Source of the DNA: an uncultured Gemmatimonadota bacterium
Lineage (GTDB): Bacteria > JAAXHH01
Length of the DNA: 64,000 nucleotides
Direction: 5' to 3'
Assembly: GCA_951812955.1 (NCBI GenBank)
Contig: OX638340.1
Coordinates: 2,368,001-2,432,000 of the forward strand
The translations under genes and the position numbers were made by a program. This document shows positions 31,863 to 63,882 of the stretch, piece after piece (positions within the stretch are counted from its first letter, which is position 1; the number at the start of each line of letters is the position of its first letter). The notes beneath the pieces were generated by a model. That model was not told the DNA's origin. It was given only the letters and a program-made list of their open reading frames with translations, and did no database searches.

Positions 31863-32183
31863 TCATACTCGCATTGCGGCCGCGCGCCGTTTGGCAGCTC
31901 GGTTCCTGCGCTCCTGCGTAAGCTCGTAGCTCGCCTGCATCCGCATCCAGTGATCGGCGGTGCCCCAGCCTATGTCTTCCAGCGCCAGCGCCATGTTCGC
32001 GGATACCCCCGCCTTGCCATTCAGAAGGCGCGACAGTGTTCCTCGCTCGCATCCAAGCCGGGCCGCCGGCCTTCGTCCGCGAGCGATTGGTCGAAGTGAT
32101 CCAGCTTGTAGTTCTAATCTCATGCGGTCTACTGGACGCGTCGAGCGTTCACTACACAGCCTGCCTCCGTACACGCTGGCCAC
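31863..32183 (-). CDS. HigA-family HTH antitoxin-like protein, orphan (no adjacent toxin)
   Basis: The C-terminal LSRLLNGKAGVSANMALALEDIGWGTADHWMRMQASYEL matches the HigA HTH core. The N-terminal half is degenerate and Arg-rich. GTG start. Confidence 0.5.
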   Translation of the reverse strand: MASVYGGRLCSERSTRPVDRMRLELQAGSLRPIARGRRPAARLGCERGTLSRLLNGKAGVSANMALALEDIGWGTADHWMRMQASYELTQERRNRAAKRRAAAMRV

Positions 32184-32391
32184 CCAAGCACGGTCCTGAA
32201 CTAACTGTCACTTCCTTGCATGATTTCGCGTAAATAACATTTAATAGAGGGTAATTAACACACAATACACATACTTGATATGGTATATTAGTATACAGGC
32301 ATCATTATGACTTTGGTTTTCGATGACCGAAGAATATACCGGGGTTTCCTCAGGCAATTGTCCGATGAAAACCAAGCCATAGACACAGGAA

Positions 32392-32736
32392 GTGGGCAAT
32401 ATGTACAGCACAACTGTATTTGCGGTGGTGCTGTTGTCCTTGGCCCTGGGCTGTAGCGGTGATAAGAACCCCATAAATCCCGAACCGCCGTCACTCCCAC
32501 CACCACTCCCACCACCACCCATAACACAGGCGGACCCTGACGCATGCAAGGTCGGCCAGACACTTTCACCAGGCGAGCGTTGCAAGGTCGGCAGTGCGTG
32601 GTTCTCCGTTACCGATGATGGGGGTGGTCATTACACTGACACAGGGATACATATCATCGTGGGAGAAAGCATCACACTCGGTTCTTTCATAGTCCGCCAC
32701 TTAGGGGACGGTCGCTGGATTATCGAAGGAGTGTAG
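32392..32736 (+). CDS. small secreted lipoprotein, hypothetical
   Basis: Signal peptide plus lipobox (LALGCSG) and a Pro-rich linker. First gene of the AT-rich island. Confidence 0.5.
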   Translation: MGNMYSTTVFAVVLLSLALGCSGDKNPINPEPPSLPPPLPPPPITQADPDACKVGQTLSPGERCKVGSAWFSVTDDGGGHYTDTGIHIIVGESITLGSFIVRHLGDGRWIIEGV

Positions 32737-32798
32737 CAATAAAAAACTATGATAACCGGCGGGAGTTGCTTAGACGATTTCCGAGGGAGGGAAATACG

Positions 32799-33365
32799 AT
32801 GTATCGACTCATATTGTCCGCGTCAGTAGCAGTTTCAATCTTGGTTACTACGCAAGCGTTGGGCCAGCAGCCCGGGGCGTTCCTGCTGGTGGATCGTCCG
32901 GCGACAAACTTGATGGCTTTAACGGACTCCGTGGCACCGGCCATCCCACAGTCGACCGAAGTGAATGAGAAAAACCCCTGGGCGGCCTTCTTTTATTCGT
33001 GGCTTATACCGGGTGGAGGCCAGTTCTATAACGATCAAGGAAAGAAGGGGCTGCTTATGCTAACAGGCGCCGCTACCGGGATCGGATTTGTGATTTATGG
33101 CATCAATGACAAGCAGGAGGAATCCTCTGAAAGTATAACGCGTACAGCAACGTCGGTTACTTTCTCGAGCCGCTACGAAGAGAGTAGCAATGATTCGGCC
33201 ATAACCATCGGGGCGGCGATCTATCTGGGAAGCGCTCTATGGTCAATGATCGACGCGCCTGTTTCTGCTAACAAAATCAACCGGGAACTACGGCAGACTT
33301 CGTTGCAGATCAACCCGGTCATTGCAGAAGATCTCGCGGGCGTGAGCCTGACACTCAAATTCTGA
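32799..33365 (+). CDS. hypothetical exported/membrane protein
   Basis: Signal peptide, a central TM helix (GLLMLTGAATGIGFVIYGI) and a WLIPGGGQFYN motif. The start is taken at the internal MYRLIL. Confidence 0.5.
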   Translation: MYRLILSASVAVSILVTTQALGQQPGAFLLVDRPATNLMALTDSVAPAIPQSTEVNEKNPWAAFFYSWLIPGGGQFYNDQGKKGLLMLTGAATGIGFVIYGINDKQEESSESITRTATSVTFSSRYEESSNDSAITIGAAIYLGSALWSMIDAPVSANKINRELRQTSLQINPVIAEDLAGVSLTLKF

Positions 33366-33540
33366 TTTCCCCATTCGCATGGATCATAATGAACCGTTTA
33401 CGTTCGCCGTTCACTGTGAGTTGAGATCAAAAGCATAGGGAATTATACACAATAGATCCAATATTGAACCCGACCGACTCGGGCGTACTGCCTTTAAGTC
33501 CTTGTGGGTTGTGTAGAGTGCTGTGTAAGGATTTTAGCAC

Positions 33541-36500
33541 ATGTCACAGCGTTATTTACCTACCTCGAAGTGCAGTTACCGTTTTGCCGTTTACATCATA
33601 ACCTGCGTAACCCTTCTTGGGCTGGCCACCTGCGGCAAGGATAGCCCCACCAAGACCGTTACACCGCCACAACCACCGGCGCCACAGCCTCCGACGCCAC
33701 AGCCTCCGACGACAACTCAACCCGCGCGTATAACAATCACGCCGAGATCGGCGAGTCTGTCCGCCATTGGTCAGAGGATACAACTGTCGGCCACGATTTA
33801 TGACAATCGCAATGTTCAGATCCCAGAAGCCGCAGTGTCATGGTCGAGCAACGATCCTGCCGTTGCCACAGTAGGAGCCCAAGGCCTTGTCACAGCGGTC
33901 GGCAACGGCACGGCCACAATCACCGCGCGGTCAGGAAACGCCTCAGAAACGGCATCCGTGACGGTCTTGCAGACCATCGCCAGTATCGTTGTCTTTCCCA
34001 TGCATAGCACGCTCTATGCCATAGGCGAGACCGTGCAACTAAACGCACTTGCGAGTGATAGGAGCTTGCAGAGTGTAGCCGATGCTGCCTTTACATGGAT
34101 TAGCGACAAACCTGCCGTTGCCACAGTAAGCGACCAGGGCCTAGTCACCGCGGTCAGCAAAGGCACGGCCACCATCACCGCGCGGTCAGGAAACGCCTCA
34201 GAAACTGCAACCGTGACGGTAGTCAGTAGGGACGATACAAGACTCAACCGAGAAGCCCTTGTCGCACTGTATCATAGTACGAATGGACCTGGCTGGACAA
34301 ACAGCACAAACTGGCTGAGCGATGCGCCCCTCGGAAATTGGCATGGCTTGGCTTCGTTTTTCCATGGAGAGGTGGAAGAGGTACGGCATCTTAACCTAAG
34401 GGAGAACAATCTCCAAGGCAAGATCCCACCCGAAATCGGGCAACTGCAGAGCCTAGTAAGTCTGGGGCTCTCCAACAACCAGTTGACCGGAAATATCCCA
34501 CCCGAAATCGGGCAACTCAATGAACTGACAAGCATGGAACTCTCCAACAACCAGTTGAGCGGATATATCCCATCCGAAATCGGGCAATTGCAGAAATTGA
34601 CAAGCATGGGCCTCTACAACAACCAGTTGACCGGAAACATACCATCCGAAATCGGGCAATTGCGAAAATTGACAAGCATGGGCCTCTACAACAACCAGTT
34701 GACCGGAAACATACCATCCGAAATCGGGCAATTGCAGGAATTGACCTTCCTGGGCCTCTACAACAACCAATTGACCGGAAACATACCAACCGAAATCGGG
34801 CAATTGCAGGAACTAACGCGCCTGGACCTCTCCAACAACCAGTTGACCGGAAACATACCAACCGAAATCGGGCAACTGCAGGAGCTTACAGAACTATTCC
34901 TTGGGTATAATTCTGGCCTTACCGGTCCACTGTCTGTAGAGCTCATCATGCTGTCCAATCTAGAGTTTTTTTATATACATAATACGCAGATATGCATTCC
35001 GCAAACATCTCAGTATCTGGCATGGTTTGAAGGTATACGAAACAGGTCAGGAGGTTTATACTGCCCCGCTCCTCATAGAGACTCCCTGATCGCACTGTAT
35101 GACCGGACGGATGGTCCCAACTGGACAAACAGCACGAATTGGAAAAGCCTTGATCCGCTGGACCAGTGGTACGGTATTACTGTTGACGGAGAAGGTCAGG
35201 TTACGGGACTTTCCCTGGAGAACAACAACCTGAACGGAGCGGTACCCCATCATCTGAGTGATCTTTCAAATCTCAAGATCCTCAACTTGTCGTTCAATCC
35301 AGGTCTAACGGGAATCCTGCCTGCTTCAGTGTCGCGCCTGGAACTGGAAGAACTGGAACTGGATGGTACACAGGTCTGCGCGCCTGCGGACACCGAATTT
35401 CAACAGTGGCTGGCTGATATCCCGCAACGTACTGTTACCAACTGTACCGATCTGCGACCGGACTATTATGCATTGGCCGGGCTGTATTTCAACACCACTG
35501 GACAGAACTGGACAAACAACACGAACTGGTTGAGCGACAGGCCGCTTAACACATGGTTCGGCGTGCAGACTAATTCAAGCGAAGAAGTCACGGGGCTGGA
35601 CTTAAAGGAGAACAATCTCGCGGGAGCTATCCCATCTGAAATTGGACAACTACAAAAACTTGAAAATCTGTACCTTTATAGGAACCAGTTGTCGGGCAGC
35701 ATACCCCAGGAAATCGGGCAATTGCAGGAACTGAGATTCCTGGATCTTTCTGATAATCGATTGGCAGGAGATTTACCACCCGAAATCTGGCGACTACAGA
35801 AACTCGAAAATCTGTTCCTTTATGGCAACCAGTTGTCGGGCAGCATACCACCCGAAATTGGACAACTACAGAAACTCGAAAATCTGTTCCTTTATGGCAA
35901 CCAGTTGTCGGGCAGCATACCCCAGGAAATCGGGCAATTGCAGGAACTGAGATTTTTGTATCTTTCTGATAATCGATTGGCAGGAGATTTACCACCCGAA
36001 ATCTGGCGACTACAGAATCTTAGGGCACTGGCTATTCGTGGCGATGCCTATAACCGGGATTCAGGCATCCAGTTGACGGGTATCATACCAGCTGAAGTAG
36101 CTCAGCTGGAAAACCTCGAAACTCTGAATCTCGAGTTTAACAGGTTAACGGGAAATATACCTCCCGAGATCGGAGACTTACAGAAACTCCGATATCTTAG
36201 ACTTGGTGGCAATCGGTTAACCGGGACAATCCCTTCTGAAATCGGAAAACTCCATAATCTGGTAGACCTGATACTTTCTAACAATCGCTTGACGGGGAAC
36301 ATTCCATCCAATATCGGGCAACTTCCGACCCTCGTGACACTTGATCTTTCCAGGAACGAACTGGAGGGTTCCATACCGGCTGAAATAGGAGGTCTACAAT
36401 CCCTTACACAATTGACGCTTAGCAACAACCAGTTGACCGGAACCATTCCAACAGAATTCGCGGGACTTGGCATGCTGGAAGTGCTACGCGTATCATTTAA

Positions 36501-38214
36501 TCGACTGTCGGGCAGTATCCCTGACTCCTTCGGCGATCTGGCCAACTTGAGATATCTGGGACTTACGGACAATGCCAACTTGTCTGGCACGCTGCCCCTA
36601 TCTCTTATCGGTCTGAATCTCGATGATCTGCTGCTCGGTGGCACGATGCTGTGCGCGCCTGAGATTACAGAGATCCAGGACTGGCTGCGGGAGATACCCA
36701 ATAGCCGCGTTTCCCGTTGCGACACCATTAACCTCCGATCTGTAGCTTACCTTACGCAGGCAGTGCAGACGCTGGAGTATCCGGTTCCCCTGGTAGCTGG
36801 TGAGGATGCACTCCTTCGCGTCTTCGTCACGTCCGAAACGGATATGGACGCCTATATGCCCCTGGTGCGAGCAACTTTTTACGAAGGTAGCGCCGAGGTG
36901 CATACCGTGGACATGCCGAGCCAGGAAACGCCCATACCCACGGAGGTCGATGAGGGCGACCTTTCGTCCTCAGCCAACGCACGCATTCCCGGGTCGGTGC
37001 TGACGCCCGGACTGGAGATGGTCATCGAGATCGATCCTGAAGGCGAGTTGGACCCCGCTCTTGGCATAAACGGACGATTGCCAGCGGAAGGACGGATAGC
37101 CATCGATGTACGAGAAATGCCTCCTTTCGATCTGACGATGGTACCTTTTCTGTGGACGGAGAACCCGGACAGGTCCATCCTGGCGCGGGTGGAAGGCCTG
37201 ACTGCCGATTCCGAACTCTTTCGACTTACACGCGATATCCTGCCGGTAGGTGAGTTTTATCTCACCATTCGCGAGCCTGTATGGACTTCGGTGGAGCCAA
37301 CCCCCCACAATTTTGGATCTACCTTTCGTGAGACAGTCACTATACATGCTATGGACGGCGCCGGCGGACACTATATGGGGGTTCTCACAGGGAGCGGTAC
37401 CGGGCTGGCCAATGCTCCGGGAGTAGTGAGTGTCTCAACGCTTGATAACATGGTTATCGCCCATGAACTTGGCCACAACATGAGCCTGGGGCATGCTCCG
37501 TGTGAAATCGGCAGCAACGATCATTTTATAGACCCCGATTATCCCTATCCAGTTTCGGCAGTTGGAGTTTGGGGATACGATCTGCTCAATGAGATGCCTG
37601 TGCAACCTGATACAAAAGAAGTTATGGGCTGTGGTAGCTGGATCAGCGATTACTTCTTCACCAAGGCTATAGGCTATCGATACTATCAAGAAAACGAAAC
37701 TTTGTTCTCCGCGGCATATGAACCACCAGTTCGAGGCCTGCTGCTCTGGGGTGGCGTGAACAGCGACGGTGAAGTTTTACTGGAACCGGCCTTTGTGGTT
37801 GACGCATCACCGTCTTTGCCCGACCTGTATGGGCCGTATCTACTGTCCGGCGAGGATGATGTCGGCGGCACGCTGTTCAGCCTCTCCTTCGGCATGGCCG
37901 AGATCGCAGACGGTGATGGCGAGAGAGCCTTCGCCTTCATCATTCCGGCGAGTACTGAGTGGTCAAACCGGCTTACGCACCTCACGCTGTCAGGGCCTGA
38001 GGGTGTCGCGACACTGGGCGGTGATGGGGGGTTGGAAGAGGAGCCTGCCGCCGCACTCCTGCTGGATCCCACCACGGGCAAAGTGAGAGGCCTCCTGCGC
38101 GACTGGCCGGTGCCGGGGATTACGGCTGTTTCAGCAAGGCGTGTGTTGCCTGAGCCGGGACTGGAGGTTTTTATCAGTTCGGGGGTGCCTGCTCCCGCCG
38201 ACTGGAGGCGGTAA
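33541..38214 (+). CDS. giant surface lipoprotein: 2x Big_2 + 3x plant-type LRR arrays + C-terminal metzincin-like zinc-metalloprotease domain
   Basis: 1557 aa. Lipoprotein signal (LLGLATC) and a PPQPP linker. Two Ig-like Big_2 domains. Three arrays of 24-aa LRRs (LxxLxLxxNQLTGxIPxEIGQL), each preceded by a cap motif ALY..T.GPxWTNSTNW...P...W.GV. HELGHNMSLGH (HExxH....GH) at about 37462-37494. Confidence 0.8.
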   Translation: MSQRYLPTSKCSYRFAVYIITCVTLLGLATCGKDSPTKTVTPPQPPAPQPPTPQPPTTTQPARITITPRSASLSAIGQRIQLSATIYDNRNVQIPEAAVSWSSNDPAVATVGAQGLVTAVGNGTATITARSGNASETASVTVLQTIASIVVFPMHSTLYAIGETVQLNALASDRSLQSVADAAFTWISDKPAVATVSDQGLVTAVSKGTATITARSGNASETATVTVVSRDDTRLNREALVALYHSTNGPGWTNSTNWLSDAPLGNWHGLASFFHGEVEEVRHLNLRENNLQGKIPPEIGQLQSLVSLGLSNNQLTGNIPPEIGQLNELTSMELSNNQLSGYIPSEIGQLQKLTSMGLYNNQLTGNIPSEIGQLRKLTSMGLYNNQLTGNIPSEIGQLQELTFLGLYNNQLTGNIPTEIGQLQELTRLDLSNNQLTGNIPTEIGQLQELTELFLGYNSGLTGPLSVELIMLSNLEFFYIHNTQICIPQTSQYLAWFEGIRNRSGGLYCPAPHRDSLIALYDRTDGPNWTNSTNWKSLDPLDQWYGITVDGEGQVTGLSLENNNLNGAVPHHLSDLSNLKILNLSFNPGLTGILPASVSRLELEELELDGTQVCAPADTEFQQWLADIPQRTVTNCTDLRPDYYALAGLYFNTTGQNWTNNTNWLSDRPLNTWFGVQTNSSEEVTGLDLKENNLAGAIPSEIGQLQKLENLYLYRNQLSGSIPQEIGQLQELRFLDLSDNRLAGDLPPEIWRLQKLENLFLYGNQLSGSIPPEIGQLQKLENLFLYGNQLSGSIPQEIGQLQELRFLYLSDNRLAGDLPPEIWRLQNLRALAIRGDAYNRDSGIQLTGIIPAEVAQLENLETLNLEFNRLTGNIPPEIGDLQKLRYLRLGGNRLTGTIPSEIGKLHNLVDLILSNNRLTGNIPSNIGQLPTLVTLDLSRNELEGSIPAEIGGLQSLTQLTLSNNQLTGTIPTEFAGLGMLEVLRVSFNRLSGSIPDSFGDLANLRYLGLTDNANLSGTLPLSLIGLNLDDLLLGGTMLCAPEITEIQDWLREIPNSRVSRCDTINLRSVAYLTQAVQTLEYPVPLVAGEDALLRVFVTSETDMDAYMPLVRATFYEGSAEVHTVDMPSQETPIPTEVDEGDLSSSANARIPGSVLTPGLEMVIEIDPEGELDPALGINGRLPAEGRIAIDVREMPPFDLTMVPFLWTENPDRSILARVEGLTADSELFRLTRDILPVGEFYLTIREPVWTSVEPTPHNFGSTFRETVTIHAMDGAGGHYMGVLTGSGTGLANAPGVVSVSTLDNMVIAHELGHNMSLGHAPCEIGSNDHFIDPDYPYPVSAVGVWGYDLLNEMPVQPDTKEVMGCGSWISDYFFTKAIGYRYYQENETLFSAAYEPPVRGLLLWGGVNSDGEVLLEPAFVVDASPSLPDLYGPYLLSGEDDVGGTLFSLSFGMAEIADGDGERAFAFIIPASTEWSNRLTHLTLSGPEGVATLGGDGGLEEEPAAALLLDPTTGKVRGLLRDWPVPGITAVSARRVLPEPGLEVFISSGVPAPADWRR
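34380..34900. repeat. about seven near-identical 72-bp tandem DNA repeats (one LRR each) inside the giant gene
   Basis: Units such as CAACCAGTTGACCGGAAACATACCATCCGAAATCGGGCAATTGC... recur with more than 90% identity. Confidence 0.7.
35640..36020. repeat. second block of near-identical 72/144-bp tandem LRR-coding repeats
   Basis: CTACAGAAACTCGAAAATCTGTTCCTTTATGGCAACCAGTTGTCGGGCAGCATACC... is repeated almost exactly three times. Confidence 0.65.
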
Positions 38215-38264
38215 CAGTTGGTTGTCCCCTTGTCGCATTCGCCGAACGTCGAGGATGTTTTCAG

Positions 38265-39332
38265 TCATTCGGTACCAATCCCCTTATCCCATGGAACATC
38301 CGACAGCCAGGGCCCGATCTGGTCCCCGTAAGCGAAGATAGCCGGCAGTCCACCCGTATGGATGAACAGCACCCGGCTACCCGCAGGGATAACGCCTGAA
38401 CGCACGTGTTCGATCAGTCCCGCCATCGTCTTGCCGGTGTAGACCGGGTCGAGGAGCAGCCCCTCCTGACGTGCCGCAAGGGCGATCGCTTCGCGCGCGA
38501 CTTCGTTGAGCCGGCCATAACCGGGCGCTAGCACGCCGTCAAACGCCATCACGTCACCCGCGTCGAACGCCTCCGGCTGTTCGATCATCGCGGCCAGTTG
38601 CTCCGCCACTTTACTCACCCGCGCCACCTGGCTGCCGGCATCGCGTCGCACGCAGATGCCGTACACGGGCACGTTGACGCCCAAGGCCCGCAGCCCTACC
38701 AGGATACCCGCGTGGGTCAGGGCGCTGCCCGTGGGACAGACCACGGCGTCGAATTCCAGCTCGAGGGACCGGGCCTGTGACAGGGTCTCCTCGGCCGCGA
38801 TGACGTATCCGAGCGCACCGATCGGAGGATGGGCGGGGGCGAGATGGATGACGTAGGGCCTGCGGCCCTCCTCTTCGAGCGATTGGGCAAGCAGGTCCAG
38901 CGCCGCGTCCGCCGCGGGCTCATCATCGCCGACCGGGAAGGAATGCAGCTTCGCGCCGAAGAGGCGGTCGAGCAATACGTTGCCAGAAGTACGGTAAAGG
39001 TTGTCCACGTCGGACACGCGCTCTTCCAGCTGGATGTGTGTCTCCATGCCAAGTCGGCGTCCGGCGGCCGCGGCCACGCGGACGTAGTTCGACTGCACCG
39101 CGCTGGTGATCAACAGGGTGTCGGCATCCCGGGACTGCGCCTCGCCCAGGGGGAATTCGATTTGGCGGACCTTGTTTCCGCCCATCACCAGTCCCGTGCA
39201 GTCGTCGCGCTTGATCCACAGCTCGATGCCGAGTTCCGCGCCGAGGCGTGGCGCGGCCTCGAGCGGCGTGGGCGCGTGACATAGCCGGACCCGGGGGAAC
39301 TTGTCGATGGCCTTGGAAAGTCGACTGGGCAT
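38265..39332 (-). CDS. D-cysteine desulfhydrase / ACC-deaminase-family PLP enzyme
   Basis: N-terminal TPLE...L.IKRDD...GGNKVR (PLP-Lys in NK) and fold-type II PLP architecture. 355 aa. Confidence 0.75.
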   Translation of the reverse strand: MPSRLSKAIDKFPRVRLCHAPTPLEAAPRLGAELGIELWIKRDDCTGLVMGGNKVRQIEFPLGEAQSRDADTLLITSAVQSNYVRVAAAAGRRLGMETHIQLEERVSDVDNLYRTSGNVLLDRLFGAKLHSFPVGDDEPAADAALDLLAQSLEEEGRRPYVIHLAPAHPPIGALGYVIAAEETLSQARSLELEFDAVVCPTGSALTHAGILVGLRALGVNVPVYGICVRRDAGSQVARVSKVAEQLAAMIEQPEAFDAGDVMAFDGVLAPGYGRLNEVAREAIALAARQEGLLLDPVYTGKTMAGLIEHVRSGVIPAGSRVLFIHTGGLPAIFAYGDQIGPWLSDVPWDKGIGTE

Positions 39333-39398: not shown

Positions 39399-39452
39399 AC
39401 CGGGTTTCCGGAATCGACCGGGTTTCCGGAATCGACCGGGTTTCCGGGTTCG
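39399..39452. repeat. 18-bp tandem repeat ACCGGGTTTCCGGAATCG x3 (the third copy diverged), with degenerate copies continuing to about 39520
   Basis: Intergenic, between the desulfhydrase start and the GH32 end. Confidence 0.6.
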
Positions 39453-39483: not shown

Positions 39484-41025
39484 TCAGGCGGGTTGCCCGG
39501 ACGAACCGGTTTCCCACGCGGACTTGAGTTCGTGGACGGTCAGCGATACGATGCGCGCGCCGCCGCTGTCCGACCGCAACGCCAGAGCGTGATTGGCCGC
39601 TGCCGGCAGGAAGCAGAATGACATGGACAATTCCCCACCGTTACCGAAGATCTCCAGGGAGGTGCGGTCGACCAGGAGCTGGAGCCGCACGCGCCGCCCG
39701 ATGGTCCTCAGGTCCGCGCTCCTTCCCATGCACGAAAGGGTCTGCCTTGCCGCGTCGTATGCCACATCGTGGCCCTGCACTTCGATGGTGAATCCCTTTC
39801 CTTCGCCGATTGCGTTGTCGGCTTGGCGCCCTTCAGCACCGCACACCTCGATCTCCATGCACACGTCGAACAGGTCGCCCTCTTCCGCAAGCACCAGCCG
39901 GCTTTCCGAGTCGCGCAGGCTCGTTACCGCGTAACTGCCGATCTCACCCCTGCCGTATTGCCGTCGAAACTGTTCGGCCGCCATTGCAGCCAGGTCACCG
40001 CCCGGCCAGTTGCGAGTCCCTGTATGAAGCAGTTCGATCTCCCTCACCGGCTCGCGGCACAGCCGTATACCCACCGGCAACGTCCTGAGCGTCAGCTCCA
40101 CCGGGAAGGTCATCTGCTGGTTGAAGGGCATGGCCGGGTATTTGCCGTCCCGCATCCACGAGATCTGGATCCGCCGTCCGTCCTCCGACGGGAGGTCGCT
40201 CCAGGTCTGGGCGGCATATCCGTTGGCGCCCTCTTCCGCCTGGAGGACGTCCGTTTCCGGCGTGAAGGTCTTGCCGTCGAAGCGCCCGAGCAGGTAACCG
40301 CCGCTCGCGCCCCAGAATACCCAACGCGTGTCCGAGGGATCTCCGTCCACCGGCAGTTCGAAGAAATCTGGACATTCAGACACGCCGGGCAGGGTCAGGT
40401 CCTGCAGACGCGTCCACGACCTGAGGTCCGGGGACGAGAACAGGGCGTAGTCGTTGCCGTCCATGAACAGGGTCATGATCCATCGCGCGGTCGGTTCGTA
40501 CCAGACCACCTTCGGATCCCGGTTCTCCGAACGGATATGCCCGATAACGGGATTGCCCGCATATTTCATCCACGTCCGGCCGCGATCATTGCTGTGGGCT
40601 ATACATTGTATACACCGCTTACCGGGGAACATCCTTTCGCCCCCCGCCGTGTAGAAGGCGATCAGGGGCGGATCATCTCCGTCCTGGAACCCGCCGGTAT
40701 TTTGATGGTCCACCGCCGCGGAACCCGACCACATCCATCCCGTGTCGTCCACGTCCAGCGCGGCGATATGGAGCTGCTTCCAGTGGACGAGGTCGGTGCT
40801 GACCGCGTGGCCCCACGTCGTGCGCCCGTGCACCATACTGCCCGGCGTGTGCTGGAAGTAAAGATGGTACTCCCCGTCGAAATAAACCAGTCCGTTGGGA
40901 TCGTTGATCCAGTGCTGCTTCGCCGTGAAGTGAAACTGGGGGCGGAGAGTTTCCCGGTAGAGGGTGTCGTTGGGCATCGCAGCGCCATTAGGTTTCGCTG
41001 ATTGGCCGGTCAGGATTCGCTCCAC
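39484..41025 (-). CDS. glycoside hydrolase family 32 (beta-fructofuranosidase/levanase/inulinase-like)
   Basis: HWINDPNG (WMNDPNG block), FRDP (RDP) and SECPD (EC) catalytic motifs, and the five-bladed beta-propeller length. An alternative start is the M at 40977. Confidence 0.8.
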   Translation of the reverse strand: MERILTGQSAKPNGAAMPNDTLYRETLRPQFHFTAKQHWINDPNGLVYFDGEYHLYFQHTPGSMVHGRTTWGHAVSTDLVHWKQLHIAALDVDDTGWMWSGSAAVDHQNTGGFQDGDDPPLIAFYTAGGERMFPGKRCIQCIAHSNDRGRTWMKYAGNPVIGHIRSENRDPKVVWYEPTARWIMTLFMDGNDYALFSSPDLRSWTRLQDLTLPGVSECPDFFELPVDGDPSDTRWVFWGASGGYLLGRFDGKTFTPETDVLQAEEGANGYAAQTWSDLPSEDGRRIQISWMRDGKYPAMPFNQQMTFPVELTLRTLPVGIRLCREPVREIELLHTGTRNWPGGDLAAMAAEQFRRQYGRGEIGSYAVTSLRDSESRLVLAEEGDLFDVCMEIEVCGAEGRQADNAIGEGKGFTIEVQGHDVAYDAARQTLSCMGRSADLRTIGRRVRLQLLVDRTSLEIFGNGGELSMSFCFLPAAANHALALRSDSGGARIVSLTVHELKSAWETGSSGQPA

Positions 41026-47797: not shown

Positions 47798-50700
47798 TTA
47801 CTTCGCTCCGGCCTTCTCACGCGTACGCCTGCCACTCAGATAGGCCTTCAGCTTCGGCGGAAAATCCCGCTTGACCAGTTCCTGCCGCAACGCCCACTTT
47901 TCTTCGTCCGACACCGGAGACGCCTCCCTGATATCACCGCCCTCCATGATCAGGATCGGTTCGCCGTCCCGGTAGAGGATCCGGTTGTTGGTGATGCCGG
48001 GAATGCGCCGCCCGGGCGTAATGATCCCGACCAGATTGAGCGGGTCGGCCGCGCTGATGGCGACGAGCGTGCCCTGCTTCTCCTTCCGCCGGATACTTCT
48101 CAAAAGGGTGACGGCCTCGCCCAGGGCGTACTGCTCGCCCCAGACGCCGTTCACGAACCGGCCGCCGCGGATCTCTCCCCTTGCTTCCATCCGCCTCAGT
48201 ACCCGTACCAGGTCCCTCCACGGCGGCGAGGTGTTTTCCCGTTCCGTGAGCCGCCTGAACACCACGCCGTACCTGGCCAGGGCGACGCGGGCATAGGCCT
48301 CGAGATCCTCCTCCGGGTTGCCGTCCTCCGGTGTCCTGGCAGTCAGCCCCCACCGTCCCGCCGTCGACAGGTCGAAGGGATTCCTGCGTTCCCGTCCCCG
48401 CCTGGACTCCCTGTGGCGCGTCGGCGCCAGCAGGGCCCTGAGCCCCGCGAAACTGTCGGAGGTCGCCATCCCCGCCGAGACCAGTTCCGCCACGGCTTCC
48501 TCGGCGTGGGTACGCAGGATCCCGGCCTGCGCGACGATGTCGTCGAAGAACACAGCGCCTTGCCGGGTCATGACGTCCAGTGCCGTCTTCGCGTAGGTGG
48601 ACAGCGAAAGATCCTCGTCGCCGGTCACGCCGCTCAGGGACATCCACAGCGACCGGTTCATGCGGTCCACGATGGCGATGGGCGTCGTTCGGATCGGGCC
48701 GGCCGTCTTCCCGTTCTCGCCGTTCGATTTATGGGGACGAAGCCGTCCCCACGCGTACTTGCCGGAAAGACACAGGTTGTCGAGCCAGACATAATCGTAG
48801 TCGGTAACGCGGGAAGGCAGGATCTCGCTCTCCCAGGCCGCGGCCGGCGCCTCCACGCCTTCGAGCATGCGCAGCACGGCGGTCACGGCGTCGGCCCCCT
48901 TCAACCGGGTGTCTGGCGCCAGGTGATGCCAGGTGAAAAGGAACTGCATGAAGTCGGCAGGTGAAACAGGCTGGATTTCGCGGCGCAGCTTCGTGATCGT
49001 GAAGCGATGGATCCGGGCGAGAAGCCGGCGCTCGCACCATTCCAGCCCGTCCGCGGCCGGCGAAAACTGTCCTCTGAAGACAAATCCCTCGTTCTCGAGC
49101 ACGGAAAGTGCCTTTTCGATCTTCCCGACCGGCAGATCAATGGAATCGGCCAAAGCAGCAGCCGTAACCGGGCCGAGTGTCTCCAGTCTTCCGCGCACCA
49201 GTTCCACCAGGGCGGATTCTTCCGTCGCGGATGCTCCACCCGCGGATGCTCCACCCGCGGGTTGAAAACTCTTTTCCAGGTTGCCCCTCACTTCGGCCGG
49301 GATTTCCTCCTCCGGCTCGAACCTTCCCTGCGGGTGCACCTGCTCGAAGTGAATGCGTCGCTCAAGGGGCGCCCACAATCGCCGGCCTCCACGGGTGATG
49401 AGCGTGGCGGCCCGGCGGTCGCCTTCCAGCTCGGCGTAGTAGTCCGTCCAACTCCCGTACTGATCCCCCTTCTTTCCCTCTTCCTCCGTCACGTACCCCG
49501 CGAGCACCAGAGCGTCGTGGAGTTCGTCGGGACTCCGCACCTCGGGCCAGGCGTCGCCGCGGACGGTGTCGATGGCCTCCGGGTCCAGGCGTCCCAGGTC
49601 CCCCGCTACGGCCGGGTCGAGCCAGCGGCGGTTCCGAACGGCGTTGGTCCGCCGCTCCTCGAGCGGCGCGTCGTCCAGGAAGGCGTACGGACGGGCGTTG
49701 AGAATCTCCTCCGCCATGGGCGAGGGCTCGCGGAGGTCCCGCGCGTGCACGTTCATTTCCCCTGCCTTCATCGTCTTCAGCACGGACTCCAGCGTCTCGA
49801 TGTCCATGGCCTCGTGCAGGCAGTCTTCGATGGTCTGGCTGACCAGGGGATGGTCCGGCACTTCCCGGTCTCCCGCGATATTCTCGAGGCACGCGATCTG
49901 GTCGGGGAAGATCTGGGCGATCAGGTCTTCGGACACGGACCGCTGTATCTGCGGCGGCACCCGGTCCCCGCCCCTGCGCCGCAACACGGCCAGGGCGATC
50001 GACGCGTTCCACCGCCAGCGCACCTCGAACATGGGCGCGTCGAGCAGGGCCTGGACCAGGACTTCGCGTACCGAAGCGGCGTTGAGGTATTTGAAAACGT
50101 CGTCGAGGGGAAAGCTGTGGGTGGCGCCCAGGGACAAAATGATGGCATCCTCGTTCGCCGCGGCCTGCAGCTCGAAGTTGAACGTGCGGCAGAACCGCTT
50201 GCGCAGGGCAAGGCCCCATGCCCGGTTTACCCGGCTGCCGAAGGGACTGTGGAGCACGAGGTGCATGTCGCCGGCCTCGTCGAAAAACCGCTCGGCCACC
50301 AGGTCCTTCTGGGAGGGTATCACGCCGAGTGCAGCCTTGGCAGTGCCCAGGTACTCCGCGATCTGCGTCGCCGCCACGTGGGAGATGCCCGCGGACTCCA
50401 TCAGCCATTCCTCGGCCTCCCGCTTCCATTCCGCGTCGAGCTTTCTTCCGCTATCCCGTCCGTTTACGGCATCCGATCCGTCGTTGTTCAACGGTCCGTT
50501 TTCGGCGCCCGATCCGTCGTCAGTGTTCAGCGGTCCGTTTTCGGCGCCCGATCCGTCGTCAGTGTTCAGCGGTCCGTTCCCGATGTCCATCCGGCTCGCA
50601 ACTTCCTCTCTCAACCGCGACAGGGAAGCGGATAGTTCGGCCGTCCTCCCCGGCGCTTCGCCGAACCAGAAGGGCATCGTGGGCGGCATGCCCTGGGCGT

Positions 50701-52351
50701 CCTCCACCCGGATCTTGCCCTTCTCCACGCGCAGGATGCGCCACGAGTTGTTGCCCAGTTGCACGATGTCCCCGGCCGTGCTCTCGATGGCGAAGTCCTC
50801 GTTCAGCGTACCGATGAAAGTCTCCGTCGGCTCCATGATCACGTCGTAGTCGAACTGGTCCGGGATCGTTCCGCCCGACATCAGGGCGTTGATCCGGGCC
50901 CCTCCGCGGCCCTTGACCGCTCCGTTCATCAGGTCACGCTGGATGTAGGCGTGCTTGCGCCCACGACGCGGGGTATAGCCCTCGGACAACATGGCCACGA
51001 CGCCGTCGAATTCCTCCCGGGACAGGGCGCGGTAGGGATAGGCCTTCCGCACCAGGTGGTACAGGTCGTCCTCCTGGAAGTCGCAGTTGGCCACCTCCGC
51101 GATGATCTGCTGGGCCAGCACGTCCAGCGGCTTTTCGGGGATGATGATGCGGTCGAGTTCTCCCCGCCGCACCGAATCCATGATCGCGGCCGCCTCCACC
51201 AGTTCGTCGCGCGTCAGGGGGAACAGGCGCCCTCGCGGCGTGCCCGTGATCGTGTGGCCGGAGCGGCCCACGCGCTGGATGAGCGTCGCGATGGCCTTGG
51301 GCGAACCGATCTGGCACACCAGGTCGACCGACCCGATGTCGATCCCGAGTTCCAGGGAGGCCGTGGCCACGAGGGCCTTCAGCGTGCCGGCCTTGAGCCG
51401 CTGTTCGGCGTCGTGGCGATGCTCCTTCGACATGCTGCCGTGGTGGGAGGTGACGTTCTCCACGCCCAACCGGTCGCTCAGGTGGCGGGCCAGCCGTTCC
51501 GACATGCTCCGCGTCGTGACGAAGACCAGCGTGGTCTCGTGCCGGAGAATGAGCTCCTCTAGGCGTTCATACACCTCCTCCCACACTTCGTTGGACATGA
51601 CCGCGCCGAGCGGGGAGCGTGGCACCTCGATCTTGAGCTCGAGTTTCCGCCGATGGCCGGTGTTGAGGATCTTGCATCCCTCTCCCTTCGCGTAGCCCGC
51701 GCCGGTGAGGAAGTGGGCGATCCGGTCGATGGGTTTCTGTGTTGCCGATATGCCGATGCGCGTAAGTGGACCGGAGGTAAGCCGTTCCAGGCGCTCCACA
51801 GAAAGGGCCAGGTGCGATCCCCGTTTGTTGCCCACCAGCGCGTGGATTTCGTCGATGATGAGGGTGTGCACATTCGGCAGGATGCGCCGGCCCCCCGCGC
51901 TCGTGAGCAGCAGGTACAGGCTTTCCGGCGTCGTTACCAAAATGTGGGGCGGGTGCTTCGTCATGGCGGCGCGCTCGCTCGTGGGCGTATCGCCCGTGCG
52001 GACCGCCACGCGGATGGGCACGTCCGGCCTCTCGCGCTCCTTCAGGATCGCCCGGATGCCCTTCAGGGGGACCTGCAAGTTGGCGTGGATGTCGTTGCTG
52101 AGGGCCTTCAGGGGCGATACGTAGACGATCTGGGTGCCCTCGGGCAGCGAACCGTACTGGCCCTGTCGGACCAGGTCGTCGATGGAAGACAGGAAGGCGG
52201 CAAGCGTCTTGCCGGAACCTGTGGGTGCGGCGATCAGCGCGTGCTTCTGCTGCTTGATGACCGGCCAGGCACGCTTCTGGATGTCGGACGGTTCCGCGAA
52301 CCGTTCCTCGAACCAGGCAGCCACGGCGGGATGGAAGAGGTCGTTGGTCAT
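47798..52351 (-). CDS. lhr: Lhr-family large ATP-dependent helicase (superfamily 2)
   Basis: Q-motif/Walker [10 protein letters not shown] and DEIH (DExH) motifs, helicase C, and a long Lhr-specific C-terminal extension. 1517 aa. Contains a 13-aa x3 repeat insert. Confidence 0.85.
50462..50578. repeat. 39-bp tandem repeat x3 inside lhr (encodes [13 protein letters not shown] x3)
   Basis: Two exact copies at 50501-50578 preceded by a diverged copy. Confidence 0.6.
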
Positions 52352-58881: not shown

Positions 58882-58943
58882 CGGCTGTTAGCAAGTCCAG
58901 GTTGCGGCTGATTGCAAGTTTTTAACCGTCCAAGTGCAAGTTT
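58882..58943. repeat. three copies of a CGTCCAAKTGCAAGTT / GGCTGATTGCAAGTTT-type repeat at the 3' end of the ATPase gene
   Basis: The last copy encodes the ATPase C-terminus (NLHLDG*). The sequence is homologous to the array upstream of the same gene. Confidence 0.5.
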
Positions 58944-60244
58944 GAGGCGGTTTCTACCGGATTCTCCCAAAGCAAACTGACCGGCGCAACCGTCAGTCCT
59001 TCTCCAAAACTCCAACACTTTTCTCCGTCATAAAGCACCACGCCGCCGGCGAACCGGTCACCAGCTGCATCCTTCAGCTTGCGCAATCCGTGGAAATCCG
59101 AAGCGCGTACAGTACTTGACGCTTTCACTTCCACACCCGCAACGGCCATTGTCCCCTTCTCGATCACCAGGTCTACCTCAACCTTGTCCTTGTCCCGATA
59201 GTGATAAAATGTCAGCGTATCATCAGACCAACTGGCCTGTCGTTTTAACTCTTGAAACACGAATGATTCCAGATACTGTCCGAATAGATCCCGATCTTTC
59301 TTCAGCGCCTCGCTGCTCGCACCGATCACGGCGCATCCGATTCCCGTGTCGCAGACATGCAGCTTCGGTGCCTTGACCATTCTCTTCAATCGATTGTTCT
59401 GCCATGCGGGTATCCGTTCCAGCAGGAAGATTCTTTCAAGGATCTCTACATACTTACCTATGGTCGGTCGGCTGAGGCTAAAGGTGGAGGACATGTCCTG
59501 AAGATTGTACAACCTTGCTGTTTGAGTCGCTGCAACAGAGAGGAGTCGAATCATGGCTCCATGATCACTTATCTTGGCTATGTCACGTACATCCCTTTGA
59601 AGTTGTGTTTCAACATAGTTCAGGTACCAATTGCGTCTTCTACCCTCGGTTGAGCGAGCCAACGCGGCCGGGAATCCTCCAGCTACGATTCTATCGGCCA
59701 GTCGGTCCGACGCTCCGGCCAACTCTGGCGCTTTAAGATCACCAGAAAACAATCGATCAAGAAAGGTGGGATGCTGACCCGACAGTTCACACTGGGCCAG
59801 TGGGTGGAGTCTGATGATCTCCAGCCGCCCCGCAAGAGAATCCGATACTCGTGGCACGAGCAGTACCTGCGATGATCCCGTTAGCAGAAACCGGCCGGGA
59901 ATCCGATCACGGTCGATCGCCATTTTCAAAGCGGTGAATATGGAAGGCGCCCGCTGAACCTCATCCAGAATTACTCTGCCAGGCAAATCGTTAACGAAGC
60001 CTATTGGATCTCTTTCCGCGGCTTCGCGTGCTGTTTCATCGTCAAAGGTAATGTAGTTGGCACCGCCCCATTCAATGACCGTTTCGCCGCCCCATACTAT
60101 GGTTTGCGACGGATTCATCATTCTCGCCAAGGTGGTCTTGCCACACTGTCTCGGACCGTGGATCAGGACGGCCGGCGAATCGGCAAGCGCCTCTTTCAGT
60201 GGGTGTTCCGCGTAACGCGGATAGAGTTTGGTCTCGGATGTCAT
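58922..60244 (-). CDS. AAA+ ATPase (COG1373-type; AAA_14 + DUF4143-like)
   Basis: Walker A GPRQCGKTT, Walker B VILDEVQ and a C-terminal restriction-endonuclease-like region. The start is ambiguous between M at 60244 and M at 60319. Confidence 0.75.
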   Translation of the reverse strand: MTSETKLYPRYAEHPLKEALADSPAVLIHGPRQCGKTTLARMMNPSQTIVWGGETVIEWGGANYITFDDETAREAAERDPIGFVNDLPGRVILDEVQRAPSIFTALKMAIDRDRIPGRFLLTGSSQVLLVPRVSDSLAGRLEIIRLHPLAQCELSGQHPTFLDRLFSGDLKAPELAGASDRLADRIVAGGFPAALARSTEGRRRNWYLNYVETQLQRDVRDIAKISDHGAMIRLLSVAATQTARLYNLQDMSSTFSLSRPTIGKYVEILERIFLLERIPAWQNNRLKRMVKAPKLHVCDTGIGCAVIGASSEALKKDRDLFGQYLESFVFQELKRQASWSDDTLTFYHYRDKDKVEVDLVIEKGTMAVAGVEVKASSTVRASDFHGLRKLKDAAGDRFAGGVVLYDGEKCWSFGEGLTVAPVSLLWENPVETASNLHLDG

Positions 60245-60351
60245 TTTCGTAACGGGCTTTCGAGTAAGTTCCGTTCCTGATCGCATTGTACTGAGTGGTA
60301 CGTTCAATTCTTCTACCATGGCTTCCTGTTGTAAAATCTAATCCTTTCATC

Positions 60352-60483: not shown

Positions 60484-63400
60484 TCAACGAAAATCCCGAC
60501 TCCGAAGCCGCAGCGTCCGGTCCTCCAGCCTCGGGTCCCAGACCGCCTCGGCCACGAGGTGGACCACCCCTTCGCCCACCTGCAGGTTTCCGGTCACGCC
60601 TAAGCAGGGAAGCGTCCTGACCAGCGAGGAATAGTACTCGAATACTTTCTCCCAGATGACCAGATTCACGAACCCCGTTTCGTCCTCCAGTGTCATGAAG
60701 GTGACGCCCTGGGCAGTCCCCGGACGCTGACGGCAGATGACCATGCCCACGTAATGGACCAGGCTGCCGTCCGGCATCCCGTTGAGTTCCCGTGCCGCGG
60801 GCAGTCCCTGGGCGGCCAGACCGGGGCGCAGCGGTTCCAAGAGGTGGCCCAGAACGCTGTGGTCGCTGACCTGATGATCCCAGACGATAGTTTCCAGGCT
60901 GCCCAGGGAGGGAAACCGGGGAGGGGAGGTGCGGCTGTCGAGCGGCAGCGCGGGCGGCTGCCGGGTTTTGGTACCCAGGACCTGCCATAAGGCGCCGCGG
61001 CGGTCTAGGCCGAAACACGCGAAGGCACCCGCCTCGGCCAGGGACTCCAACTTGTCCTCGTGGAGTCCGCTCCGCCGGGCGACGTCCGGAAGGTCCCGGA
61101 AGGGGGTCCGCTCCATAGCCCGGATCAGTTTCTCCCAGTCTCCTTTGCTCAGTCTCTGGACATAGCGCAGTCCCATGCGCACCGCGAACCGGGCGCAACC
61201 CTCACCGCCATCCCCGGCACCGCCCCTGCTATCGTTCCCTGTACTGCCTCCGCTATCGCCCGCGTCTTCCGCTTCAATCTCCTCCAGGGTGCAGTCCCAG
61301 CGGCTGTGAAGAATGCTCACCGGCCGCACTTCCACCCCGTGTATCCGGGCGTCGTTGACGATGGTGGCGGGCGAGTAGAATCCCATGGGCTGGGCGTTCA
61401 GCAGGGCGCAGGTGAACTCCGCCGGGTAGTGGCAGCGCAGGTAGGCGGTGGCGTAGGCGATGTGGGCGAAGCTGGCGGCGTGGCTTTCCGGGAACCCGTA
61501 CTCGCCGAACCCCCGGATCTGCTGGAAGACGCGTTCGCCGAATTCCTGCTTGATGCCCTTCCTCATCATGCGCGTGACCAGCCGTTCCCGGTGCCGTTCG
61601 ATCCGTCCCGAGCGCCGCCAGGCGGCCATGTCCCGCCGGAGCTGGTCGGCCTCGCCGGGGGTGTAGTCCGCCGCCACCATGGCCAGTTGCATCACCTGCT
61701 CCTGGAAGAGGGGCACGCCCAGGGTCTTCTCCAGGACGGGCACGAGGCACTCGTGGGGATAGGTGACTTCCTCCACTCCGTTGCGCCGACGCAGGTAGGG
61801 ATGGACCATGCCGCCCGTGATGGGCCCGGGACGGACGATGCTGATCTCGATCACAAGGTCATAGTAGGTGCGCGGCTTCAGGCGCCCCAGCATGGCCATC
61901 TGGGCCCGGCTCTCGATCTGGAACACCCCCACCGTGTCGCTGCGGCAGATCAGGTCGAAGGTGGCGGCATCCCCCCGGGGGAGCTTGGCCAGAGAGAGGT
62001 CTATCCGGCGGTGCCGCCGCAGGAGGTCGAAGCCGAGGTGCAACAGGTTGAGGGCGCCCAGGCCCAGGAGGTCCACCTTGAACAGTCCCGCGTCTTCCAC
62101 ATCCTCCTTGTCCCACTGGATCACGGTCCGCCCCTCCATGGTGGCGTTCTCGATGGGCACCAGGTCATGGACGGGATAATGGCCCAGCATGAAGCCCCCG
62201 GGATGGATGGAGAGATGGCGGGGAAAATCCTGGATCTCCCGCACCAGGACGTTCAGGTGGAGCAGGGCCGGGTTTTCGGGATCGAGGCCTGCCTGCCGGA
62301 TGAAGGCCCCGTCCCAGCGTTCGTGAGCTATCAGCTTGGCCAGACGGTCCAGGCTGGTTGCTGGTATCTCCAGTACCTTGCCCACCTCCCGGATGGCGGA
62401 CCGGTGGCGGTAACGGACGACGTTGGCCACCATGGCGGCGTGGGTGCGCCCGTACTTCTGGTACACGTGCCGGATCACCTCTTCCCGGCGGTTGTGTTCG
62501 ATGTCCAGGTCGATGTCCGGCGGCTCCGCCCTTTCCCTCGACAGAAAACGCTCGAAGAGGAGGTCCACCTGGGTGGGGTCCACGCTGGTGATGCCCAGGG
62601 AGAAGCAGACAGCGGAGTTGGCCGCCGATCCGCGGCCCTGGCAGAGGATCTTCTCGCGGCGGCAGTATTCCACGATCTCGTGCATGGTCAGGAAATACCC
62701 CTCGTACTCCAATTCCCGGATCAGGGCGAGTTCTTTCTTCAACTGGGGAGTCAGTTGCTTACTTTTGCCGGGCAGGCGGCGTTCCGCGCCCGCGAAGGTG
62801 CGTTCCTCCAGGTACTGGATGGACGTCTTGCCTTTTGGCAGGCGCTCCAGCGGGTAGCGGTAGCGCAGTTCCCCGAGGGAGAAGGTGCAGCGGTCGGCTA
62901 TCTCAAGGGTGCGTTCGAGGGACGCCGGGTCATCGCCGAAGAGCCGCGCCATGTCTTCCGATCCCTTCAGGGCGTACTGGTCGTTCGGCCGGAGGAGGCG
63001 CCCGGCCGCGGGCAGCGTCACGCCCTCCCGGATGCAGGTCAGCACGTCCTGCAGGGGACGCCGTTCGGGCGCGTGGTAGAGCACCTCCACGGCAGCCACG
63101 GTGGGCAGTCCGAAGCGGTCCGCCAGCTCCCGGAGACGAAACTCCTTCAGGATCTCCTCCGCCCTGCGATGCCGGGCCAGGACCACGTACAGGCGGTCTT
63201 TGAAGGCCGCGCGGAGTGGTTCGAGGATAGGGGCGAGGCTGGGGTCTGCAAGGGGCGGCGCGGACTCGGAAAGACCCGATTCGGGGGACGCGCCCTCAAG
63301 GGGCGGCGGGGACGCGTCGGCGGCTCCGGGCGCCGTCGATTCAGGCACGCCGCGCGATTTCAAGTCTCCAGCGCCAGGCGCGGACCCGACGGTGACCGTT

Positions 63401-63882
63401 CCAGAGCCGGACGATCCAGATCCCCCGATCCACAGGGCGATCAACCCCGGGCTGTGGCGGCACACTTCCTCCCAACTCACCCGGCAGTTCCCCTTGGCGC
63501 CGCGCAGGTGCCCGGCGGTCAGCAGCCGGCAGAGCTGGGCGTAGCCGTCCCGGTTCTGGACCAGCAGCAGGATCTCCGAGCCGTCCCGGAGGCTGACCTG
63601 CGATCCCACGACCAGGTGGACGTCCAGTTCCCGGGCGCGGACGTGGGCCCGCACGATGCCGTACACCCCGTTGCGGTCGGTGAGGACCAGGGACGGAAGG
63701 TCCAGGCGGCGGCAGGCCTCCACCAGTTCCTCGGGATGGCTGGCCCCTTCCAGGAAGGAGTAGTTGCTCTTGCACCAGAGGGGCGCGTAGGAGGGAGCTG
63801 GAGACACAAATCCATTCGTGGCCGCCGGACGCGACCCGGTTTTTGTTTTCTCGGTATTCATGATGATCTCAGCGGCCGACAA
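60484..63882 (-). CDS. dnaE2: error-prone DNA polymerase III alpha-family (DnaE2/ImuC)
   Basis: PHP domain at the N-terminus ([29 protein letters not shown]), the DnaE2-type polymerase core, and a C-terminal OB fold. 1132 aa, with a Gly/Ser/Pro-rich insert. Confidence 0.85.

Follow-up and report, generated by a model that had tools for sequence, protein, structure and literature searches.

The window analysed here is a stretch of 64,000 nucleotides (nt) from an uncultured Gemmatimonadota bacterium (contig OX638340.1 of GenBank assembly GCA_951812955.1, positions 2,368,001 to 2,432,000 of the forward strand). It contains a large plus-strand gene whose 1557-amino-acid (aa) product has Pfam matches to LRR_1/LRR_8/LRR_14, Big_2 and, weakly, Peptidase_M66. 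The product is probably a lipoprotein. It combines two Big_2 domains with three capped cassettes of leucine-rich repeats (LRRs) and, at the C-terminus, a zinc metalloprotease region. All three cassettes are built alike: an N-cap (ALYxxTxGxxWTNxxNW...W.G) comes first, LRRs follow in a row, and the C-cap holds a pair of Cys residues. We consider it likely that the LRR arrays of this gene turn over by intragenic recombination, which yields in-frame variation in size and sequence and no on/off switching. The parts of the gene are as follows.

33541-38214 (+), whole gene, intact open reading frame (ORF) of 1557 aa (ORF listing and Pfam)
33541-33633 (+), signal peptide with a lipobox-like L-A-T-C end (Cys31), read from the sequence
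33664-33723 (+), Pro-rich linker; Tandem Repeats Finder (TRF) reports a 15-nt x 3.1 repeat at 33665-33711
33730-34239 (+), two Big_2 domains of 85 codons each (33730-33984 and 33985-34239; Pfam Big_2, two stretches, E 2e-20)
33826-33965 (+), putative Big_2 conversion tract, domain 1 copy, 84% over 140 nt against 34081-34220
34081-34220 (+), putative Big_2 conversion tract, domain 2 copy, 84% over 140 nt against 33826-33965
34249-35064 (+), LRR cassette 1, the variable one, 276 aa here
34249-34350 (+), cassette 1 N-cap
34372-34443 (+), cassette 1 cap unit
34444-34875 (+), six near-identical canonical 72-nt LRR units, the copy-number-variable array (block 1)
34876-34947 (+), cassette 1 terminal unit, divergent
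34990-35064 (+), cassette 1 C-cap with the Cys pair
35077-35445 (+), LRR cassette 2, short, with irregular LRRs, length-stable
35461-36720 (+), LRR cassette 3, length-stable, 406 aa from cap to protease in orthologs
35650-36009 (+), five units A-B-A'-A''-B', the homogenised block with lag-216 and lag-72 copies (block 3)
36106-36537 (+), six older LRR units, periodic as protein only, used as internal control
36736-38211 (+), C-terminal StcE-like metzincin region: beta-sandwich, catalytic domain, beta-sandwich(es)
37462-37494 (+), zinc motif HELGHNMSLGH, residues 1308-1318

The first array lies in cassette 1. TRF detected a 72-nt-period array at 34426-34890 with 6.5 copies, 86% matches and zero indels. 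When the six units at 34444-34875 were cut in codon register their pairwise identity was 75-97%, units were separated by 2-16 substitutions, and neighbouring units were 78, 82, 97, 88 and 89% identical in order along the array. Sliding identity at lag 72 stayed at 0.86-0.97 between 34525 and 34741, and the longest exact run at this lag was 70 nt, at 34594. Random 72-nt pairs within the gene averaged 0.25 identity with a 99.9th percentile of 0.51, therefore the array signal is far beyond chance. The initial annotation had described successive units as more than 90% identical. We found this to be true for the core of the array (~34549-34690), but not for all successive units, which range from 78 to 97%.

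We asked how often two units use the same codon at residues that are conserved between them and have degenerate codons. In block 1 the same codon was used at 225 of 275 such sites (0.82), and in block 3 the fraction was 0.85 for A-type units and 0.91 for B-type units. The expectation from the codon usage of the gene is 0.30-0.37. In the six control LRRs at 36106-36537, which follow the same scaffold consensus, the fraction was 0.25 (expected 0.30) at a mean nucleotide identity of 0.50. The excess of shared codons therefore shows that the identity within block 1 and block 3 is due to shared DNA descent. This agrees with the earlier proposal that the repeats are periodic as DNA and reflect recent duplication or gene conversion. 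Periodicity of the protein alone, which had been named as the outcome that would overturn that proposal, was found only in the downstream LRRs at 36106-36537.

Relatives of the gene were collected by a protein search in which 8000 candidates were scored. Among these, 6949 were relatives at E <= 1e-10, with lengths of 1245-2663 aa and several per genome. In four positional orthologs (L001-L004) the gene occupies the same slot, from a PhyH gene to a convergent PALP-GH32 pair. L001 is on a 2.47-Mb contig with flanks 96% identical in DNA to the window, L002 is on a short-read metagenome scaffold with flanks 93% identical, and L003 and L004 are more distant (82-90%). We found that the canonical units between the cap unit and the terminal unit number three in L001, six in the window and at least 14 in L002. 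In L002 the orthologous array is interrupted by a 100-N scaffold gap (L002:7810-7909) and the gene call is broken and truncated to 1300 aa. Apart from this gap, the orthologs with three to at least 14 units keep an open frame. The locus combines an excess of DNA identity, a unit length that is a multiple of three and a difference in copy number between relatives, as in in-frame size-variable repeat loci. Thus the ortholog comparison supports two expectations of the initial annotation, that LRR copy number may vary between relatives and that short-read assemblies mis-resolve the region. Two exact-pattern scans of Joint Genome Institute (JGI) metagenome contigs returned no further alleles, and the 90% protein cluster of the product of this gene (P0001) has one member.

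The variation in length is concentrated in one cassette. Measured from cap to cap in 16 close homologs, cassette 1 was 157, 181, 201, 205, 225, 229, 249, 273, 276, 345 or 369 aa, in steps of about 24 aa, while cassette 2 was 129 aa in all 16 and cassette 3 was 406 aa in nearly all. Cassette 2 is also 96% identical between the window and L001. Across 104 members of the wider family, 127 of 181 N-terminal cassette lengths fell into four adjacent classes modulo 24, and the penultimate cassette was 129-132 aa in 92 of the 104. At the DNA level, 26 of 80 family loci of other species had lag-72 windows with at least 85% identity, thus DNA-level turnover of units is recurrent in the family.

The orthologs also differ in sequence within the gene. 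In block 1 the gene is a mosaic, with the window close to L002 while L001 is at 77-87%, against a gene background of 96-99%. As a separate observation, the catalytic part of the protease in L002 (equivalent to window 37127-38000) is just 62-72% identical to both the window and L001, where the background is again 96-99%. This segment resembles a P0005-type allele (HELGHNMNL.HAPCHGGGT) and looks like an allele swap by intragenic recombination. The PhyH-PALP slot of L003 (3510-12950) holds two tandem paralogs of 1365 and 1649 aa, and that of L004 (8001-13481) holds a single gene for an 1826-aa protein with an extra whole LRR cassette. At this locus, duplication thus extends from single units to whole cassettes and whole genes.

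Block 3 behaves differently from block 1. TRF detected a second 72-nt-period array at 35638-35948 with 4.3 copies and 73% matches. We found that the two-unit segment A-B recurs three units downstream, at lag 216, with 0.89-0.96 identity over 35629-35749; A and A'' are 93% identical, B and B' are 96% identical, and the longest exact run at this lag is 58 nt. A' and A'' form a lag-72 pair that is 93% identical, with the first 56 nt identical. Identity at lag 144 was modest, about 0.82 over a short stretch. The 144-bp tandem repeat named in the initial annotation is therefore not what is present here; the block reads A-B-A'-A''-B', with copies at lag 216 and lag 72.

At the same positions both L001 and L002 have the order X-A-C-A-B, with 98% identity between the two, but the window is only 58-81% identical to them, against a gene background of 96-99%. 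The outgroups P0003, P0005 and P0011 have five units in this slot, all of them different. Since the window, L001, L002 and the three outgroups all have five units here, and nearly all orthologs have a cassette of 406 aa, the term expansion does not apply to the second block. The A-type units carry lineage-specific residues, ENL in the three copies of the window, EIL in the two copies of L001 and DIL..Y in the two copies of L002. This sharing of substitutions within each genome is a signature of concerted evolution. Derived substitutions shared within a genome, together with replacement without a change in length, are the features expected of gene conversion. We therefore read block 3 as a probable case of conversion at constant unit number, in which the content has been homogenised and the count conserved.

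The two Big_2 domains share 84% identity over 140 nt (33826-33965 versus 34081-34220) and 26-44% outside this tract. A similarity of roughly 110 bp between 33850-33965 and 34110-34225 had been reported at about 90% identity. The similarity is real, 88% over those 116 nt, but the offset is 255 nt (85 codons) and not 260; the second copy is at 34105-34220, and at an offset of 260 the identity falls to 28%. Identity between the two domains over the tract was 79-84% in the window, L001 and L002 and 54-58% in L003 and L004, where the comparison was anchored on the conserved Trp owing to a one-residue indel in domain 2. The Big_2 tract thus seems to behave like block 3, on an older time scale.

These data are consistent with a model in which recombination among the repeats adds, removes or overwrites single 72-nt units, each of which codes for one plant-type LRR of 24 residues. 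In cassette 1, unequal homologous recombination or replication slippage between units would change their number in frame. The units there share exact runs of up to 70 nt, and exchange among them would therefore leave arrays of different length in close relatives. In the cassette 3 block and the Big_2 pair the same kind of homology would instead lead to non-reciprocal gene conversion with the length fixed. Matches of 70 and 58 nt are ample for homologous recombination or slipped-strand events, and the molecular route is presumably RecA-dependent exchange or slippage. When both blocks were compared by blastn with the 64-kb window, no copies of the units were found outside the gene, so the donors are probably intragenic. 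For block 3 the simplest path, one parsimonious reading in which the order of events is inferred, would have two steps: positions 4-5 were copied onto positions 1-2 (lag 216), and the head of position 3 was then overwritten by position 4 (lag 72), which left the C-type tail (GAAATTGGACAA) on A'. The first LRR arc would thereby vary in size and sequence, within a protein in which a binding module is linked to a StcE-like zinc protease.

The age of the units bears on how recent this turnover is. In the stable parts of the gene the proportion of synonymous differences (pS) between the window and L001 is 0.05-0.09. The youngest pair of units, 34588/34660, has two mismatches and a pS of ~0.07, comparable to the divergence of these sister lineages, and to this extent the duplication can be called recent, as the initial annotation had it. 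The values for units are based on tiny counts of 1-6 synonymous differences per pair. Taken together they indicate that turnover probably proceeds on the time scale of sister-species divergence.

Several observations weigh against turnover by intragenic recombination, or limit how rapid it can be. The other pairs of units have a pS of 0.12-0.30 and predate the split from L001; measured on that scale, turnover is not rapid. No two units of the window are identical; identical units are present in L002, on its short-read scaffold. The count of at least 14 units comes from that same gapped scaffold and is possibly unreliable, and the copy number in the window is that of the assembly. In block 3 a 72-nt deletion combined with a 72-nt gain would yield the same product as conversion. 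Diversifying selection among units was not seen, since the ratio of nonsynonymous to synonymous differences (pN/pS) is ~0.5; positive selection was likewise rejected in the variable 5' ten codons of the unit, where the ratio is the same as overall.

We weighed intragenic turnover against four other explanations. If the periodicity were one of protein only, purifying selection on the LRR scaffold and codon bias would have produced it with no recent duplication or conversion. The 3' 45 nt of the unit do encode an invariant scaffold, NNQLTGNIPxEIGQ, and pN/pS among units is below 1. However, this explanation is contradicted by the codon test against the internal control, in which blocks 1 and 3 share synonymous codons far above expectation while six LRRs of the same scaffold do not. 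Moreover, copies within a genome share lineage-specific substitutions and the number of units differs among orthologs, and we give this explanation next to no chance of being correct. An assembly artefact, in which unit number, unit order and the differences among orthologs stem from collapsed or mis-joined repeats, is very unlikely but deserves more weight. Variation in coding tandem repeats and the assembly problems that come with it have been described (PMC3899988, PMC6868369), tandem repeats being a known cause of assembly errors (PMC6868369), and the gap in the short-read scaffold of L002 falls in exactly this array. Yet the gene of the window is intact and lies on a 3.81-Mb contig that encodes the identical protein P0001, and the 2-16 substitutions between units are enough to anchor accurate long reads. 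L001, L003 and L004, whose contigs span 2.5-3.2 Mb, have similar arrays with other unit numbers, and the 24-aa ladder extends over ~100 proteins from many assemblies.

The initial annotation had also suggested that the region is a hotspot of phase variation, that is, a contingency locus in which repeat slippage switches expression of the protein on and off. Repeat arrays in genes for surface proteins are the classic setting for this, and a variable 18-nt repeat is present in a nearby intergenic region, though it belongs to the neighbouring pair of genes. A unit of 72 nt is 24 codons, however, and the frame is kept at each gain or loss, as it is in the orthologs with three to at least 14 units, the N gap aside. 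We found no homopolymers of 8 nt or longer and no di-, tetra- or pentanucleotide simple sequence repeats in 33301-38300, with only a T7 present. The in-frame unit and the lack of a simple-sequence tract in the gene or upstream therefore argue for size variation and not for on/off phase variation, which we regard as extremely improbable. Programmed diversification by external donors, in which silent cassettes, a paralog (P0051) or imported alleles overwrite the arrays, has somewhat more in its favor and is still improbable. The gene is mosaic, with a divergent block 1 in L001 and a divergent protease segment in L002 that is like a P0005-type allele, several paralogs exist per genome, and the gene lies within an island of low GC content at third codon positions (GC3). 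Each young unit, on the other hand, is closest to a unit of the same array or to its ortholog, and nothing unit-like occurs outside the gene in the window. The unit consensus of P0051 is clearly different (LSGSIPPELGNL), as compared at the protein level only. External donors might account for the swapped alleles, yet they leave the copies at lag 72 and lag 216 unexplained.

We then considered the protein itself. The LRRs are of the 24-residue plant-specific type, with the consensus LxxLxxLxLxxNxLxGxIPxxIGx, and the best matches among solved structures are the ectodomains of GSO1, FLS2, MIK2, PEPR1 and BRI1, with E values down to 6.5e-143. Further PDB matches to the LRRs are 4u08, 4u09 and 4u06. 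The three N-cap segments gave no Pfam match to LRRNT_2 even at E up to 10, and the Cys pair is absent from them, so we rejected an LRRNT_2 identity for these caps. At the N-terminus LATCGKDSPT is kept in orthologs. When LLGLATC is compared with the lipobox [LVI][ASTVI][GAS]C, the Thr at -1 is atypical although conserved in orthologs, and because of this residue lipidation is only inferred. As a side observation, the 15-nt x 3.1 repeat at 33665-33711 encodes the PQPPT/APQPP linker and has a 6-nt in-frame indel relative to L001.

The C-terminal region resembles StcE in fold. The Pfam match to Peptidase_M66 (PF10462) reached 19.6 bits against a cutoff of 20.6, below the gathering threshold, and covered profile positions 166-236 only; precomputed PF10462 matches exist on many homologs. 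The motif HELGHNMSLGH fits HExxHxxxxxH, which is present in 104 of the 120 best homologs, and H246, E247, H250 and H256 are invariant in alignment A1. No sequence match to the protease region was found in the PDB. The best C-terminal match among GTDB species representatives was 60% identical. A profile of the protease region matched 1970 representatives at E <= 1e-30 in a 50%-identity library, and among the matches listed, in proteins of 510-2731 aa, the region is at or near the C-terminus. Relatives of this region occur in metagenome-assembled genomes (MAGs) labelled Longimicrobiales, Ca. Palauibacter, Latescibacterota, Acidobacteriota, Gammaproteobacteria and Rhodothermales, and the isolate names of many of these MAGs are sponge- or coral-style. 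The family is large, with members mostly in Gemmatimonadota and allied MAGs. We predict from the features of the protein that it is a zinc protease of the StcE type, anchored at the surface and guided by its LRRs; surface exposure, anchoring, protease activity and substrate are all part of this prediction, and any selective value of the length variation would likewise be a prediction.

As a side observation, P0051, which is encoded on the same chromosome outside the window, is a 2410-aa paralog that lacks the protease region; it consists of nine or ten cap-LRR-cap cassettes built in the same way, with one Big_2-like domain at its N-terminus, and several paralogs are present per genome. The architecture of P0051 thus indicates that this genome reuses the capped LRR cassette as a module.

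In-frame repeats that vary in number are known from the alpha C protein of group B Streptococcus and from staphylococcal and other repeat-bearing adhesins. The locus described here is like the variable repeats of such bacterial surface proteins (PMC3899988) in its head-to-tail coding repeats, their nucleotide identity, a unit that is a multiple of three, differences in copy number between relatives, long exact matches and difficult short-read assembly. It is unlike them in that the unit is a structural LRR of a solenoid, so that a change alters a curved binding arc and not a stalk, and in that the units are 75-97% and not 100% identical. Plant LRR receptor ectodomains likewise have 24-residue units, N- and C-caps and a Cys pair in the C-cap, and changes of repeat number together with conversion in LRR arrays are well known from plant LRR genes. 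In contrast to these receptors, the gene encodes a predicted bacterial lipoprotein without a kinase or transmembrane helix, its N-caps lack an LRRNT_2 match and the Cys pair, and its capped cassettes, of which there are three separate ones, are joined to Big_2 domains and to a protease. StcE, a member of Peptidase M66 that enterohaemorrhagic E. coli secretes as a zinc metalloprotease and mucinase, is similar in that HELGHNMSLGH resembles the extended metzincin zinc motif. The two differ in that they share 15% identity, motif position 8 is Ser or Asn and not Gly, and the domain is here fused to LRR cassettes.

Two further groups invite comparison. The Leptospira LIC LRR proteins, the Xanthomonas effectors XopAE, XopAC and XopL and internalin-like proteins are similar at the LRR level only; NCBIfam matches to XopAE, XopAC, XopL and LIC_11051 were far below the cutoffs (261 versus 600, 197 versus 450, and so on). 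Unlike bacterial LRR effectors, this protein has no type III signals and no non-LRR domains in common with them. The eukaryotic-like proteins of sponge and coral symbionts, with ankyrin, TPR, LRR and other domains, are similar in that the family occurs in MAGs of sponge-associated lineages. LRRs are among the eukaryotic-like proteins of sponge Latescibacterota MAGs (PMC12993501), and sponge-derived Palauibacterales MAGs form a single genus (PMC10469786), in a paper that does not mention LRR or eukaryotic-like proteins. The papers on eukaryotic-like proteins consulted here list LRR domains generically, without the Big_2-LRR-protease architecture or the turnover of repeats.

The locus is a further example of the well-known turnover of in-frame repeats, in what is apparently an undescribed large family of LRR-proteases. 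Surface proteins are well known to change rapidly by such turnover, so no concept is altered. In short-read MAGs, the annotation of this family, which has ~2000 protease-domain representatives at 50% identity, will yield unreliable gene calls and protein lengths. The LRR units of cassette 1 and of the first half of cassette 3 should not be treated as positional orthologs, because conversion appears to have reshuffled them. That one cassette varies while the other two are of fixed length marks cassette 1 as the part likeliest to be tuned to a changing partner and as an obvious place for host- or niche-specific alleles. A more speculative possibility, which we put forward tentatively and think rather unlikely, is that cassette 1 is an evolvable specificity or reach module of a StcE-like protease in host-associated (probably sponge or coral) Gemmatimonadota and allied symbionts, in which in-frame gain and loss of plant-type LRR units would change the host or prey glycoprotein to which the protease is directed. 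If so, the 24-residue ladder would be the footprint of recurrent selection on arc length, and the family would be a previously undescribed group of LRR-targeted mucinase-like proteases with a variable-length binding arm.

The gene lies in a compositional island, of which the other features are as follows.

32200-37900, island comprising the small lipoprotein ORF, the DUF5683 gene and the LRR gene, GC 0.45-0.60 versus 0.62-0.68 in the flanks
32392-32736, lipoprotein-like ORF of 114 aa with a PPLPPPP linker
32766-33365, DUF5683 gene

The GC3 of the island is 0.54-0.60, versus 0.76-0.84 in neighbouring genes, which suggests that it may be an old horizontally acquired module. It is found in L001 and L002 as well and thus did not arrive recently. 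An ORF for a HigA-family antitoxin (31863-32183, minus strand; NCBIfam 48.3 bits against a cutoff of 47.7) sits at the left edge of the island, with no HigB partner evident; a 77-aa gene is kept there in L001 and L002.

On the other side of the LRR gene, an 18-nt tandem repeat (ACCGGGTTTCCGGAATCG) at 39399-39452 has two perfect copies and one degenerate copy. It is intergenic, flanked on one side by the PALP gene, which starts at 39332 on the minus strand, and on the other by the GH32 gene, which ends at 39484, and it may fall within a promoter or operator. The window and L002 each have three copies, L001 has one, and L003 and L004 have none; it is the second small repeat of variable copy number here. 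Synteny between the window and L001 stops just past the GH32 gene (window 40970). Beyond this point L001 has a PhyH-like gene, two unannotated genes and an MreB/HSP70-like gene, while the window, L002, L003 and L004 have DUF1854 followed by two ABC transporter genes.

Other observations were made elsewhere in the window. ARAGORN called a 94-nt tRNA-Glu(CTC) at 49625-49718 on the plus strand, antisense inside an ORF for an Lhr helicase (47798-52351, minus strand); its abnormal length and location suggest a false positive. A DnaE2-like error-prone polymerase is encoded at 60484-63882 on the minus strand, and its closest named relatives, at 76-85%, are from Gemmatimonadetes MAGs. The protein is 80% identical to the copy on the L001 contig (P0148), whereas 15 kb around the LRR locus are 93-96% identical in DNA between the two genomes. 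This suggests that divergence along the chromosome is uneven, or that the polymerase cassette is itself mobile. The AAA_14/DUF4143 gene next to the polymerase (58922-60319) also has a low GC3, 0.55.

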